Under the pieces are notes generated by a model. That model saw only the letters and a list, made by a program, of their open reading frames with translations. It was not told the DNA's origin and did not search any database. Of a stretch of 64,000 nucleotides of DNA, positions 26,305 to 29,313 are shown in pieces. The stretch is taken from assembly GCA_016214995.1 (NCBI GenBank), contig JACRML010000058.1, positions 4,194-68,193 on the forward strand. Reading direction: 5' to 3'. The translations under genes and the position numbers were made by a program. How positions within the stretch are numbered: position 1 is the first letter of the stretch; every line of letters begins with the position of its first letter. This DNA is from Deltaproteobacteria bacterium (GTDB lineage Bacteria; Desulfobacterota; GWC2-55-46; UBA9637).

Positions 26305-26595
26305 TTAGCAGCACTCTCCTGCAGTATCCCCGCACCCGCAGGAAGGCTTGCCTCCGGTAACCATGCCGTTTATGATCGCGGCTGCGCAGCCCACGCCGGC
26401 ATTCACAGCTATGGCCCCGAAGGCGCAGTTTCTCGCGCATGCGCCGCATTCCATGCACCTGTCCTTATCGCTTAATGCAGCCTTTTTGCCGCTCATAACA
26501 AAGACCGCATGAGGACACACCTCAACGCACCTTTCGCAGCCGGTGCATGCATCCGGAAAAAACCCAAGGCTTGTCACATTGGTAAGATATTTCAT
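26305..26595 (-). CDS. hgcB: Mercury methylation ferredoxin HgcB
   Basis: It has two 4Fe-4S motifs (CTGCERCVEVCP, CMECGACARNC) and the conserved CMECGA. Its C-terminal tail is SCGCGDTAGECC, with a vicinal Cys pair. I place the start at the ATG at 26595, which forms an ATGA overlap with the hgcA stop. Confidence 0.85.
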   Translation of the reverse strand: MKYLTNVTSLGFFPDACTGCERCVEVCPHAVFVMSGKKAALSDKDRCMECGACARNCAFGAIAVNAGVGCAAAIINGMVTGGKPSCGCGDTAGECC

Positions 26596-27653
26596 AAAAT
26601 ACCCCACTCTTTCAGTTTGAAAAAGACCAGCAAGACAAAGGAAATAAAAGCGCCTGACATATAGATCGGCAAGGCGAACCTGAGTTCCTTTTTAACGCCG
26701 GACATGCCGGTAAAAACGGTTGAACCTGTAAATTGCAGGGCAATATACGAGCTTGCCAGCGGAAAGAATAAAAATGAAAAAACAGCGGCAGGCGCGGCAA
26801 TGGAAATATTTTGTATGCCAAGAAAGGTGAAAACGAGCCCGGCAATCCAGCCTTTAACGGCAAATGACCTGAACGGCACAAAAGGAAGCAGCAGCGGCGT
26901 AACCAATGCGCCTGTCAGAACCGCCAAAAATCCGAGAAAGATAAACGGCAGTCCGTTTGCCAGGCCATCTTTGAATATGATTCCCGACGGCTTCAGGCCC
27001 ATGATGAAAAATATGAGCGCCGCATAAATCGCGTATATTTTAATGGCCGGGATCATCTCCATAGGCGTAAGAACCAGCCTGTCCCACACGGTGAACTTAA
27101 CCCTGCGCATTTCTTCTGTCGTCTGATACCCTGCTTCAACATAGCGCCGGATATCCCGCGCGTCAACAGGGCCGTAATAAACCCTGAATCCGGTTTTTTG
27201 TTGAACAATATGGGCCGCAATCCCCGGCGCACCCAATTGCGGCGCGATAATTCTTTTATGGCTCACAACATTTTCCAATTGCGACGCGCCAATCCGTTTT
27301 ATGAGTTCATCCGTGCCGAATGTGCCTTTGCCTGCCGCGCACCAGACATTGATGCCTTTTGTGTCCAGCACGAGAATCCAGACATTCATCCCCTTTAAAG
27401 AGCGCCTCAAGATATCAAAGCTCATTTTATAATTGGCGCTCACAAACACATCGGAATTTTTATCGGGATTGCCCGCAGTGTAGAGGCCGGGCTTAACCGC
27501 ATATCTCATGCGCAGTCCGCTTATCCTGCATCTGAAGTGATCCAGATATTCCCGAAGAGTCCAATCGGACGATACTGCTGCGGCTAAAGGCGCTGTAGCA
27601 GCATTCTTTGCGCAGCAGGGAGATGACATCTTCTTTGCTTCTGATTTCAGCAT
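26592..27653 (-). CDS. hgcA: Mercury methylation corrinoid protein HgcA
   Basis: It has the cap-helix signature GINVWCAAGKGTFGT, i.e. N(V/I)WCA(A/G)GK. An N-terminal corrinoid-binding domain is followed by 4-5 C-terminal TM helices. Confidence 0.9.
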   Translation of the reverse strand: MLKSEAKKMSSPCCAKNAATAPLAAAVSSDWTLREYLDHFRCRISGLRMRYAVKPGLYTAGNPDKNSDVFVSANYKMSFDILRRSLKGMNVWILVLDTKGINVWCAAGKGTFGTDELIKRIGASQLENVVSHKRIIAPQLGAPGIAAHIVQQKTGFRVYYGPVDARDIRRYVEAGYQTTEEMRRVKFTVWDRLVLTPMEMIPAIKIYAIYAALIFFIMGLKPSGIIFKDGLANGLPFIFLGFLAVLTGALVTPLLLPFVPFRSFAVKGWIAGLVFTFLGIQNISIAAPAAVFSFLFFPLASSYIALQFTGSTVFTGMSGVKKELRFALPIYMSGAFISFVLLVFFKLKEWGIL

Positions 27654-27722
27654 GTTCAGTTCAACCTCCTAAAAAACTTTTGTGCTGTCAGGAGTTGCCC
27701 CCTGACGGCAAGCAGCGCCGCC

Positions 27723-27974
27723 TTAACCACAGCCGCACCCTTTTTCCAATGCGCCTGCGTTCGCTTCGGCCGGCTTGAATACAGTTGAACCGAACTGATC
27801 CATCTTGGTCATTGCGCCCTTTCTTACCATCTTCGCTATTGTAATTGCCTCTCCAATCTCCTGCTCACCTGCCCCATTTTCTTTCGCCTTACCGACATGG
27901 TAGCTTAAACAGGGCTGGCAATTTGCCGTAACTGATGCGCCGACTGCTATCAGTTCTTTGATTCTGTTATCCAT
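27723..27974 (-). CDS. Carboxymuconolactone decarboxylase / AhpD-like CxxC protein
   Basis: It reads KELIAVGASVTANCQPCLSYHVGKAKENG. Its C-terminal tail is EKGCGCG. Length is 83 aa. Confidence 0.7.
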   Translation of the reverse strand: MDNRIKELIAVGASVTANCQPCLSYHVGKAKENGAGEQEIGEAITIAKMVRKGAMTKMDQFGSTVFKPAEANAGALEKGCGCG

Positions 27975-27976
27975 AA

Positions 27977-28138
27977 TTAGCCTCCTTCATCATCTTTCTT
28001 ATACAGATTATCTGTATTCTGCATATTATGTCTTCCCATCATACAACCCATTCTTCTCATCATGAGGAAACACAAAATGAGCATAGCAACAGGAAATATC
28101 CACCAGAATCCATATCCAATCCCTCCGCATGTAAACAT
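27977..28138 (-). CDS. 53-aa Cys/Met-rich single-TM peptide (below the ORF-track cutoff)
   Basis: It translates as MFTCGGIGYGFWWIFPVAMLILCFLMMRRMGCMMGRHNMQNTDNLYKKDDEGG. Its stop lies 2 nt before the start of the AhpD-like gene, whose GGAGG ribosome-binding site lies inside this ORF's 3' end. Confidence 0.45.
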   Translation of the reverse strand: MFTCGGIGYGFWWIFPVAMLILCFLMMRRMGCMMGRHNMQNTDNLYKKDDEGG

Positions 28139-28204
28139 GGCGCATCACTTCCTTTCTAATCTTATAGACGGAGGTCAGTCAGAAAAGGATACACCTACTT
28201 CTTC

Positions 28205-28422
28205 CCGTAAAATAGCAATTAAAAACCTCGCTACTTTACAAACCTGCGATTTGCCCGCCATACTTCGTTACCGGACAATTTTTACTCCTCACCGTATCGG
28301 TGAACATACGGCTCGTTGTAAATAACACACCCCTTTAGTCCCCCTCTCGAGAGGGGATTTAGGGGTGTGTTGTCTGGCAGGCAACTTGCAGGTTTCCCCA
28401 AAAATCAAAGTCTATTTTTGGG
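28205..28422 (-). repeat. Mosaic multi-hairpin repeat, copy D (reverse orientation, one module deleted)
   Basis: It is the reverse complement of the copy B/C pattern. It lacks the CCACTTGC..GCAAGTGG module. The track ORF 28062-28325 is translated repeat. Confidence 0.85.
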
Positions 28423-29035
28423 ACTTCCGAAACCCTTCAAAGGCAGTTTTCGGGTCGCATGCCAATTGATTTCGTTCATCACGATAAAAACTGCAATGGG
28501 CCTCCAGTTCTTTCTTTAGTTTTGCTCTGGCGCGATGCAGCCTGATTTTGACCGTATCAAGGGTAATGCCAAGGATGTCGGCAATCTCGTTGTTTTTCAA
28601 CCCTTCCAACTCACCAAGCGCTACAATAGTTCTATAGTTTTCCGGGAGGTTTTCAATAAAATCCCGGATGCACCGGTTCATATCCTTCCTAATGAGTTCC
28701 TGATCAATAGAGGGCATCTTTTCTCCTGTCCAGACATCCTTGTCTTCTGTGTCCCCTTCGCTTAAATCGTCCGATGATTTTCTGTAAGCCATTTGTTGGA
28801 AAGAAGGACTGCGGAGTCTGTCTAACGCAGCATTGGTAGCGATGCGATATATCCATGTTGATAATTGGCACTCGCCCCTGAAATTCTTCAAGGCTTGACT
28901 TATCTTGATGAAAACCTCTTGACACAGGTCTTCAGCCTCATGCTGGCCTGCCAGTCGTTTTAGATAGCGCAATATTCTCGGCTGGAAGGTGTCATAAATT
29001 GTCTGAAACTCCAATTTTTCCATAACCTCGCCCAT
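28412..29035 (-). CDS. ECF-type RNA polymerase sigma factor
   Basis: Region 2 reads AEDLCQEVFIKISQALKNFRGECQLSTWIYRIATNAALD. Region 4 reads YRTIVALGELEGLKNNEIADILGITLDTVKIRLHRAR. I place the start at ATG 29035 or 29023, which avoids a 109-nt overlap with the upstream gene. Confidence 0.8.
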   Translation of the reverse strand: MGEVMEKLEFQTIYDTFQPRILRYLKRLAGQHEAEDLCQEVFIKISQALKNFRGECQLSTWIYRIATNAALDRLRSPSFQQMAYRKSSDDLSEGDTEDKDVWTGEKMPSIDQELIRKDMNRCIRDFIENLPENYRTIVALGELEGLKNNEIADILGITLDTVKIRLHRARAKLKKELEAHCSFYRDERNQLACDPKTAFEGFRKSQK

Positions 29036-29046
29036 CTCCACATCCT

Positions 29047-29313
29047 TTACCTCAATATATCTTTCATAACCGGACCGAGCCTCCCCTTTACCATATCCAC
29101 CAGGTCTTCCACTTTCATCAGGGTAATACAGCATATCTTGCCGTCTTTGTGCCATGTGGTGACGGCCAATTTGTCTCCGGTCTTTATCTTTGCCTTTTCC
29201 CGCAGCTCCTTGGGCAGAACCATCTGGCCGCGCTCATCAACGGTTACGATGGATTCCACCTTGCAGTTGTTTTCCGGTTCGCAGCAGGAAATGTCTTTCT
29301 TGTTTTTGGCCAT
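29047..29313 (-). CDS. AbrB/MazE/SpoVT-type DNA-binding protein with Cys pairs
   Basis: It has the looped-hinge-helix core VTVDERGQMVLPKELREKAKIKTGDKL. It also carries N-terminal SCCEPENNC and internal KICC motifs. Confidence 0.65.
   Translation of the reverse strand: MAKNKKDISCCEPENNCKVESIVTVDERGQMVLPKELREKAKIKTGDKLAVTTWHKDGKICCITLMKVEDLVDMVKGRLGPVMKDILR

Follow-up and report, generated by a model that had tools for sequence, protein, structure and literature searches.

The window analysed here is a stretch of 64,000 nucleotides (nt) from a Deltaproteobacteria bacterium genome (assembly GCA_016214995.1, contig JACRML010000058.1, positions 4,194 to 68,193). This report concerns the mercury-methylation genes hgcA and hgcB that lie on its minus strand, together with the four genes that precede them there: hgcC, for an AbrB-like DNA-binding protein, a gene for an extracytoplasmic function (ECF) sigma factor, one for a 53-residue membrane peptide (the mini peptide) and one for a small AhpD-like protein of the CMD family. 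An earlier reading, made from the sequence alone, had taken these genes as one set, in which proteins with paired cysteines could hand on Hg(II) or maintain a redox state while the sigma factor and the AbrB-like protein served as a dedicated regulatory pair. All six open reading frames (ORFs) and every motif it quoted are present in the translations, on the minus strand and where it had placed them. That reading merges two separate units, however, and overstates the novelty of the AbrB-like gene, which is hgcC, a neighbour of hgcA already known; what is new about it is a promoter and a candidate operator. The other unit is a cassette of the sigma factor, mini peptide and AhpD-like genes.

The mercury-methylation genes and HgcC

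The corrinoid protein of mercury methylation is encoded by hgcA (26592..27653, minus strand), which matches PF03599 as well as NF040863, the latter at 400.2 bits against a cut-off of 275, with residues 26-344 aligned to model positions 3-321 of 325, the C-terminal membrane domain included. Its cap-helix motif, N(V/I)WCA(A/G)GK, is present as GINVWCAAGKGTF (NVWCAAGK) and is invariant in an alignment of 19 sequences. The gene directly after it, hgcB (26305..26595, minus strand), encodes a 2x[4Fe-4S] ferredoxin that scores 117.4 bits with NF040864 (curated cut-off 99) and whose translation includes CTGCERCVEVCP and CMECGACARNC, giving two CX2CX2CX3C motifs, before a tail, SCGCGDTAGECC, that ends in CC. 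Although the ORF was listed as 26305-26607, the true ATG of hgcB is at 26595, and the junction of the two genes, TTATGAAA, is the ATGA overlap of the hgcA stop and the hgcB start that had been taken as a sign of translational coupling. An AGGAGG lies 11 nt upstream of the hgcA ATG, and the nearest database relatives of HgcA are 87% identical. The hgcAB genes were reportedly identified as the mercury-methylation gene pair by Parks et al. in 2013. Both proteins here exceed the equivalog cut-offs and share with that pair, as modelled by NF040863 and NF040864, the cap-helix, the membrane domain, the two [4Fe-4S] motifs, the C-terminal CC and the gene overlap, which at the level of sequence shows them to be genuine, orthodox mercury-methylation genes of a known kind. 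They differ from the known pair in nothing essential. The SPCC that had been pointed out in the N-terminal region of HgcA is present in the translation too; of the two versions of the CU/CC extension that Haft 2022 described for this terminus, it represents Cys-Cys and not Cys-Sec.

The GC content of hgcB (0.56), hgcA (0.49), the CMD gene (0.49) and hgcC (0.49) is raised relative to the window (0.43), a difference that would fit a horizontally acquired operon and that is less marked in L003, the locus of an HgcA relative described below. In the spacer between the CMD gene and hgcA (27654-27725, minus strand), where a terminator scan called none, a fold of little stability is predicted (-23.9 kcal/mol, z = -2.1) that pairs CUCCU with the AGGAGG ribosome-binding site of hgcA, and translational or attenuation control through it might just be possible.

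The first gene of the apparent operon, hgcC (29047..29313, minus strand), encodes an 88-residue AbrB/SpoVT-type DNA-binding protein. It matches PF04014, exceeds the cut-off of NF040962, 'HgcAB-associated protein HgcC' (118.6 bits against 70), and finds SpoVT/AbrB N-domains as its sequence matches in the PDB. Cysteine pairs are found before the hairpin (SCCEPENNC) and after it (KICC), and they recur in the family: a CC follows the beta-hairpin in 40 of 43 members, and 32 of the 43 have an N-terminal CC or CxC. In a sample of hgcA loci (80 from GTDB species genomes and three close relatives), 75 had at least 450 nt of sequence upstream of hgcA; 31 of these have hgcC there in the same orientation, and in 30 of the 31 it is less than 400 nt away.

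Contrary to the sequence-only reading, then, the AbrB-like gene does not itself extend the known picture of hgcAB, being already present in NF040962 and in the work of Zhang et al. 2023 (PMC10349881). There, an abrB/prlF/mazE-like gene directly upstream of hgcA was reported from about 39% of hgcAB contigs and from 8 of 31 confirmed methylators, and proposed as a regulator. The frequency of 31/75 resembles that figure, and in the window hgcC likewise lies upstream of hgcA on the same strand and in the same apparent operon; it differs from the published arrangement in being 1.39 kb away from hgcA, because three genes have been inserted between the two. While the published gene is described as mainly archaeal and as toxin-antitoxin-related, hgcC in the loci studied here is bacterial, lacks a toxin partner and has a conserved promoter and candidate operator. 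A role for HgcC as a type II antitoxin (MazE/PrlF) was considered and rejected: the next gene is that of the sigma factor here and hgcA in other loci, and neighbour scans detected no toxin family. For want of a toxin partner, hgcC is not part of a toxin-antitoxin module.

Some 50 nt upstream of hgcC stands a sigma70-type promoter (29366..29393, minus strand), in which TTGACA and TATAAT, 16 nt apart, give 12 matches out of 12. The stretch from its -10 hexamer to the start of hgcC contains a putative HgcC operator (29335..29357) made up of three TCWGA half-sites phased 9 nt apart, which read TCTGA-ATAA-TCAGA-ATTA-TCAGA on the minus strand. The dyad TCWGA-W4-TCWGA occurs nowhere else in the window (two overlapping matches at this site, with 0.04 expected), and its 29 matches across 172 loci, found in 24 of them, all lie just upstream of hgcC. 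Counted singly, the half-site averages 1.78 copies per 140 nt upstream of hgcC against a background of about 0.06 per 140 nt (roughly 30-fold), and two or more copies were found in 26 of 41 hgcC loci and, upstream of hgcA, in none of 43 loci without hgcC. The promoter is conserved as well: distant loci have CTTGACA-N17-TAnnnT in the corresponding position before hgcC (19 of 41 by the strict pattern, with most of the others visibly similar). In loci of Nitrospirota, Spirochaetota and 'Deltaproteobacteria' it is followed by repeats of the ATCAGAAT/ATTCTGAT type.

Since non-coding DNA conserved across phyla at the -10/+1 position has the look of an autorepressor operator, we infer that HgcC binds these half-sites. 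No published description of an hgcC promoter or operator turned up in a literature search, and the conserved promoter and candidate operator, found only upstream of hgcC, are a new detail of this family. HgcC is very probably a dedicated regulator of the operon, and the half of the proposed regulatory pair that concerned the AbrB-like gene is borne out to that extent, whereas the sigma factor belongs with the CMD gene, as shown below.

HgcC-like AbrB proteins with the same cysteine pairs also occur on contigs where hgcAB was not detected, adjoining the sigma factor and CMD genes in L152/L153 (7760-10252) and directly before the CMD gene in L140 (9725-10252); L152 has repeats resembling CAGAATAT/ATATTCAG upstream. 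This arrangement suggests that regulators of the HgcC type may control the cassette independently of hgcAB.

The sigma factor, mini peptide and AhpD-like protein

The ECF sigma factor (28412..29023, minus strand) is a protein of 203 residues. Its ORF was listed as 28412-29155, and the overlap with hgcC that results is an artefact, as the longest-ORF rule starts the gene too early; the orthologue in L003 sets the true start at about 29023 (MEKLEF). The protein contains Sigma70_r2 and r4_2 domains and scores 107.8 bits with TIGR02937 (cut-off 42.9). PRK11922 and SigZ are its best specific models, and it falls below the cut-off of both (115.9 against 168.65 for the SigZ equivalog, TIGR02959). Matches to ECF sigma factors in the PDB stop at the end of sigma4, ahead of a tail of about 27 residues, HC-SFYRDERNQLA-C, whose first cysteine is found in all of 36 unique tails and whose C-x11-C spacing is found in 32 of them.

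Such a tail recalls the ECF238 group (SigZ and CorE2), in which a short Cys-rich C-terminal extension senses metals without an anti-sigma factor, CorE2 being activated by Cd/Zn (PMC7826278). The sigma factor in the window shares with this group the ECF core, a short Cys-bearing tail and the absence of a recognisable anti-sigma domain in its neighbours. It remains below the SigZ cut-off, however, and has only two tail cysteines, and the resemblance is to the published description of the group; furthermore, a conserved AhpD-like neighbour is not a described feature of ECF238. Linkage to a CMD-family gene is instead known from ECF41, whose sole targets are CMD-family genes, the adjacent target genes being of the CMD/oxidoreductase/epimerase ('COE') type (Wecke et al. 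2012, PMC3426412); both are ECF sigma factors without an anti-sigma factor and in tight linkage with such a gene. Membership of ECF41 itself was rejected, as a tail of only about 27 residues in a protein of 203 contrasts with the large C-terminal regulatory extension of that group, which is SnoaL-like (PMC7826278). The CMD gene here also lies downstream in the same operon, and its product is a minimal 83-residue form with CxxC and GCGC.

This AhpD/CMD-like protein (27723..27974, minus strand) matches PF02627 (49.2 bits against 23) and the AhpD core model TIGR00778 (38.8 against 27.8), and has a 100% match in the database from an NCBI 'Deltaproteobacteria bacterium' metagenome-assembled genome, whose HgcA may be lacking from the protein collection or carry another annotation, given that the best match there to the HgcA of the window is only 87% identical. 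Its AlphaFold model (pLDDT 87.5) has three helices, with CQPC (residues 19-22) at the start of the second (residues 20-32) and with the C-terminal KGCGCG in a flexible, disordered tail; Foldseek places it near the small AhpD-like hexamers 3bey, 7y4r and 1vke (TM score of about 0.65). The cysteine motifs to which the sequence-only reading gave weight are thus present, but they are properties of the family rather than of hgcAB loci: among the best 120 of 929 family matches, CQPC occurs in 114 and a C-terminal CGC in 96. The nearest functional parallels may be the AhpD-like CxxC/UxxC domains that occur as fusions with arsenite methyltransferase (NF041537) and the (seleno)protein family GSU3128 (NF041047), which have in common with the protein here an AhpD core with CxxC at a helix start and an association with a methylating enzyme whose substrate is a thiol-bound metal(loid). 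It matches both models only weakly, with 42.9 bits against a cut-off of 510 for NF041537 and 36.9 against 110 for NF041047, the latter having been tried as an identification and rejected. In contrast to both, it is free-standing and is not a selenoprotein, and its partner is a corrinoid methyltransferase, not one dependent on S-adenosylmethionine.

Between the sigma factor and CMD genes lies the gene for the mini peptide (27977..28138, minus strand), a single-pass membrane protein with the motif MFxC-G-G-G-WW-FP...CF-MMR..GC-MG-H, the 3' end of which carries the ribosome-binding site of the next gene. The sequence-only reading had been right to pick out this unannotated ORF, which cannot be a chance one because it is conserved as a protein in orthologous loci (L003, L167, L061, L105, L086, L168, L169, L164/165 and L085). 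It matched no family in Pfam, even at E<=10, or in NCBIfam, and an identification with MerT, MerF, MerE or MerP was rejected on the same searches. The family is a small one: a word-indexed database of 5.8 billion sequences contains seven of its proteins, and a search of 1.84 billion sequences retrieved 90 cluster representatives at E<=1e-3, of which 13 reached <=1e-10. A SHOCT tail is present in many of the relatives, and the slot of the mini peptide is filled in L166 by a YgaP-like membrane protein that ends in SCC.

Distribution of the cassette and the intergenic repeat

Among relatives of the HgcA in the window, L003 (72% identity) has the same order of genes, hgcC, sigma factor, a mini ORF of 44 residues, CMD, hgcA and hgcB, and the same flanking synteny (FAD oxidoreductase, a helix-turn-helix protein, a response regulator and an M29 peptidase). 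L167 has the arrangement hgcC-sigma-mini-CMD-hgcAB as well. The loci of two closer relatives consist of hgcC-hgcA-hgcB only (L001, 82%) and of hgcA-hgcB only (L002, 79%), and among the 83 sampled hgcA loci the trio of sigma factor, mini peptide and CMD genes was found only in L003 and L061.

Pairs of sigma factor and CMD genes are far from rare elsewhere. In about 40 of 80 metagenomic CMD loci, the gene directly upstream, in the same orientation as the CMD gene, encodes an ECF sigma factor with the tail HC-x2-Y-x-D-x2-N-x3-C; the gap is usually 29-70 nt. For most of the other loci, the sequence stops within 700 nt. Because hgcA or hgcB is present in only 2 of the 80, the sigma factor and CMD genes make up an autonomous unit. 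A Pfam census of 112 neighbours of this unit revealed no dominant third partner, only a scatter of thioredoxin, methyltransferase, ArsP, CDF, DsbD and SufBD. The trio is shown to be a separate cassette, widespread on its own and often located among thiol-redox and metal(loid) genes. The sigma-AhpD cassette is a widespread ECF module that has not previously been described, and a literature search found nothing linking hgcA to AhpD or to a sigma factor.

The form of the cassette that contains the mini peptide has a different distribution. Apart from the gene order of the window, L003 and L167, it occurs in Nitrospirota-type loci (L061, L105, L086, L168 and L169) as hgcC-hgcAB-(Flavodoxin_2)-sigma-(VKOR or DGC)-mini-CMD, and it is found without hgcAB in L164/165 and L085. 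In the window, hgcC and the sigma factor gene are separated by 23 nt, mini and CMD by 2 nt, and CMD and hgcA by 69 nt, in addition to the overlap of hgcA and hgcB; gaps do not exceed 30 nt in L167, L105 and L086, and in the last two the sigma factor gene begins 10-22 nt after hgcB. Among loci found through CMD, the mini-bearing cassette lies beside hgcAB in five of seven with usable context, compared with none of 13 sigma-CMD loci without mini that had enough upstream sequence and none of 13 that had enough downstream. On at least two occasions, then, the mini-bearing cassette has joined the hgcC-hgcAB operon, between hgcC and hgcA here and downstream of hgcB in the Nitrospirota-type loci. The linkage of these genes to hgcAB on which the sequence-only reading depended is accordingly present for hgcC and for the mini-bearing cassette, which recurs in two gene orders, and is mostly lacking for sigma-CMD units at large.

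Several additions to the cassette were seen. DGC-domain proteins are inserted in L105 (4845-5402) and L085 (2805-3374; PF08859), the former ending in SSGCGCS, a GCGC tail like that of the CMD protein and similar to that of HgcB. In L085 (2805-5010), sigma-DGC-mini-CMD without hgcAB is followed by a 97-residue ORF rich in Cys and Met (NCCKGAGEVTACCSMMGEMMG), and then by a gene for an MtrA-like corrinoid-protein homologue (PF04208, E = 1.4e-36), making this a second cassette beside a corrinoid protein. Operons of the Nitrospirota type (L061, 11402-13207; L168, 5178-5780; L169, 345-1702) add a Flavodoxin_2/FMN-reductase gene, and a VKOR-family membrane thiol oxidoreductase is encoded between hgcB and mini in L061, with a homologue also before mini in L088. 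The Flavodoxin_2 and VKOR neighbours reinforce the thiol-redox theme of these loci.

Inserted between the sigma factor and mini genes of the window is the repeat element that had been noticed there, and it is real (28205..28422, minus strand). It is one of four dispersed copies of about 220-280 nt in the window, the others being at 12751-13006, 23813-24094 and 36787-37040, all on the plus strand. The copies are modular, in that the modules at their flanks are conserved whereas the palindromes inside can be exchanged (the one at 12.7 kb has a different hairpin in the same slot), and highly structured, the predicted RNA fold reaching -119.9 kcal/mol (z = -8.7). An Rfam scan of the whole window gave no family for the repeat or for anything else. 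The repeat may be an element like REP/BIME or MITE, or else belong to a family of small RNAs. It is absent from the same position in L003 and L167, and the spacer between the sigma factor and mini genes is 68 nt in the former and about 30 nt in the latter, compared with 273 nt here.

Two further genes lie close to the operon. Between hgcB and the FAD oxidoreductase gene is a 185-residue ORF (25554-26111, plus strand) without a Pfam or NCBIfam family. Its GC content of 0.51 exceeds the 0.43 of the window, and L003 lacks it despite the shared synteny; it may be a lineage-specific insertion. A few kb away from the operon, a 267-residue multihaem cytochrome c with several CxxCH motifs is encoded (32570-33373, minus strand), which fits a host with an anaerobic respiratory lifestyle.

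Interpretation of the locus

Taken together, these observations suggest a single minus-strand transcription unit, hgcC, ECF sigma factor, mini peptide, AhpD-like CxxC protein, hgcA and hgcB, interrupted by the repeat insertion, which would be transcribed from the consensus sigma70-type promoter upstream of hgcC. HgcC would act as an autorepressor, probably by binding the phased TCWGA half-sites of the putative operator in front of its own gene, with its two conserved cysteine pairs as candidate sensors of a thiol-reactive ligand. The sigma factor could be a one-component sensor of thiols or soft metals like CorE2, with the mini peptide and the CxxC/GCGC protein as its effectors; the precedents of ECF238 and ECF41 make a one-component, Cys-tailed sigma factor with thiol-active effectors the likeliest arrangement. 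Placed beside hgcAB, the effectors might keep the cysteine ligands of HgcA and HgcB (the N-terminal CC and the C-terminal CC) reduced, or might buffer Hg(II) or pass it on. A role of the cassette in Hg hand-off or redox maintenance is plausible. We would give this reading as a whole, one operon with HgcC-regulated hgcAB joined by the sigma/mini/AhpD cassette, a probability of roughly 55%. That the mini-bearing form is moreover a dedicated accessory of HgcAB in some Nitrospirota and Desulfobacterota-like lineages, with the Cys-tailed sigma factor sensing a thiol-reactive ligand, the Cys/Met-rich mini peptide and the AhpD-like protein handling Hg(II) or the thiol state of HgcA and HgcB, and HgcC gating the whole operon through the TCWGA operator, is a tentative proposal, which we consider possible but less likely than not.

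A number of observations weigh against the reading of one joined operon. The cassette is rare, being found in 3 of 84 sampled hgcA loci, and its closest counterparts are not confined to mercury methylation: in L164/165 a CMD protein 82% identical to the one here stands with sigma factor and mini peptide among ArsP, ArsR, thioredoxin, DsbD and SufBD genes without hgcAB, and in L085 the cassette adjoins the MtrA-like protein instead of hgcAB. The association of the mini-bearing form with hgcAB (5 and 2 loci against 0 and 13 among loci found through CMD; Fisher p of about 0.001, calculated by hand) comes from a test that is not fully unbiased, in that some of the mini-containing loci were picked from hit lists. 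In the window itself, 218 nt of repeat split hgcC and the sigma factor gene from mini, CMD and hgcAB, and the repeat may terminate or process the transcript and so affect read-through. When the regions preceding 33 non-redundant sigma factor genes were searched de novo for a conserved promoter dyad (-35/-10) of the ECF type, none rose above shuffled controls (a maximum of 7, compared with 4-6), and the single-sequence AlphaFold model of HgcC was unusable (pLDDT 56).

Much of this would also be expected if the cassette were simply a hitch-hiker, an autonomous thiol or metal stress module that settled at a permissive point of the operon and has no functional tie to methylation, leaving hgcC, hgcA and hgcB as the functional unit. 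Sigma-CMD units are indeed widespread and mostly unlinked to hgcAB, with varied neighbours and no dominant partner, and close orthologues are surrounded by ars and thioredoxin genes in L164 and by neutral ones in L166. The whole CMD family shares CQPC and CGC, and the HgcA relatives L001 and L002 do without the cassette. Chance association is harder to reconcile with two positions of insertion relative to hgcAB that are both operon-tight, with the preference of the mini subtype for hgcAB (five of seven loci against none of 13 without mini) and with the recurrence of the Nitrospirota-type arrangement on five contigs. We regard the hitch-hiker explanation as possible, though doubtful.

The gene co-transcribed directly downstream of an ECF sigma factor is usually its anti-sigma factor, and the AhpD-like protein, the mini peptide or both could by that rule be anti-sigma partners forming a thiol switch of the RsrA kind, in which case the trio would serve signal transduction, letting the operon respond to soft metals or thiol-reactive compounds, and would not be a set of effectors. 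The CMD gene follows the sigma factor gene by 29-70 nt in most loci, both partners have conserved cysteines, and the mini family always accompanies the sigma factor or CMD, as in the two distant members that were looked up (L170 and L171). No anti-sigma domain is detectable in either protein with Pfam or NCBIfam, however, a classical one would not fit into the short mini peptide, and the precedents point the other way: in ECF41, the one studied group of CMD-linked sigma factors, the CMD gene has the role of target, not of regulator (PMC3426412), and ECF238 members need no anti-sigma factor (PMC7826278). Such a switch seems unlikely.

An equally improbable proposal is a relay of Hg(II), which the mini peptide would take up or bind at the membrane and the CxxC/GCGC protein would carry to the CC pairs of HgcB and HgcA, in the tail of the former and at the N-terminus of the latter. 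Cysteine pairs are found in every component, Cys and Met residues flank the membrane helix of the mini peptide on both sides, GCGC tails are common to the CMD protein, HgcB and the DGC-domain protein of L105, and it is the mini-containing subtype that is linked to hgcAB. Yet Pfam and NCBIfam searches gave no resemblance to a known Hg carrier (MerT, MerF, MerE and MerP included), the motifs are not specific to hgcAB, the same cassette is present in arsenic and thioredoxin contexts, and more than 95% of sampled hgcAB loci lack it. Finally, it is highly improbable that hgcAB, CMD and mini form a mobile or invertible island of 4.1 kb bounded by inverted repeats (23818-24094 and 28205-28422), for in spite of repeat arms up to 99% identical over 82 nt and a GC content of 0.46-0.50 inside against 0.41-0.43, the repeat is dispersed in four copies over 64 kb, all in intergenic gaps, L003, which has no repeats, keeps the gene order from the M29 peptidase to hgcC, and no transposase or recombinase gene lies inside, so that the repeat does not mark an island boundary.

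The control of hgcAB expression and the purpose of HgcAB are open questions in mercury biogeochemistry, and the only experimentally tested regulator of hgcAB cited in PMC10349881 is an ArsR-like protein in one strain. The candidate HgcC operator, conserved across phyla, is usable to predict regulation in metagenomes. The cassette, for its part, ties hgcAB to responses to thiol or soft-metal stress, a tie that has its parallel in the fusion of AhpD-like domains to arsenite methyltransferases. Should the cassette prove to be a hitch-hiker, the sigma-AhpD unit would still be a widespread and previously undescribed ECF module. Should it be a dedicated accessory of HgcAB, mercury methylation would for the first time have defined partner proteins, and regulatory inputs other than ArsR, through which the native function of HgcAB might be approached.

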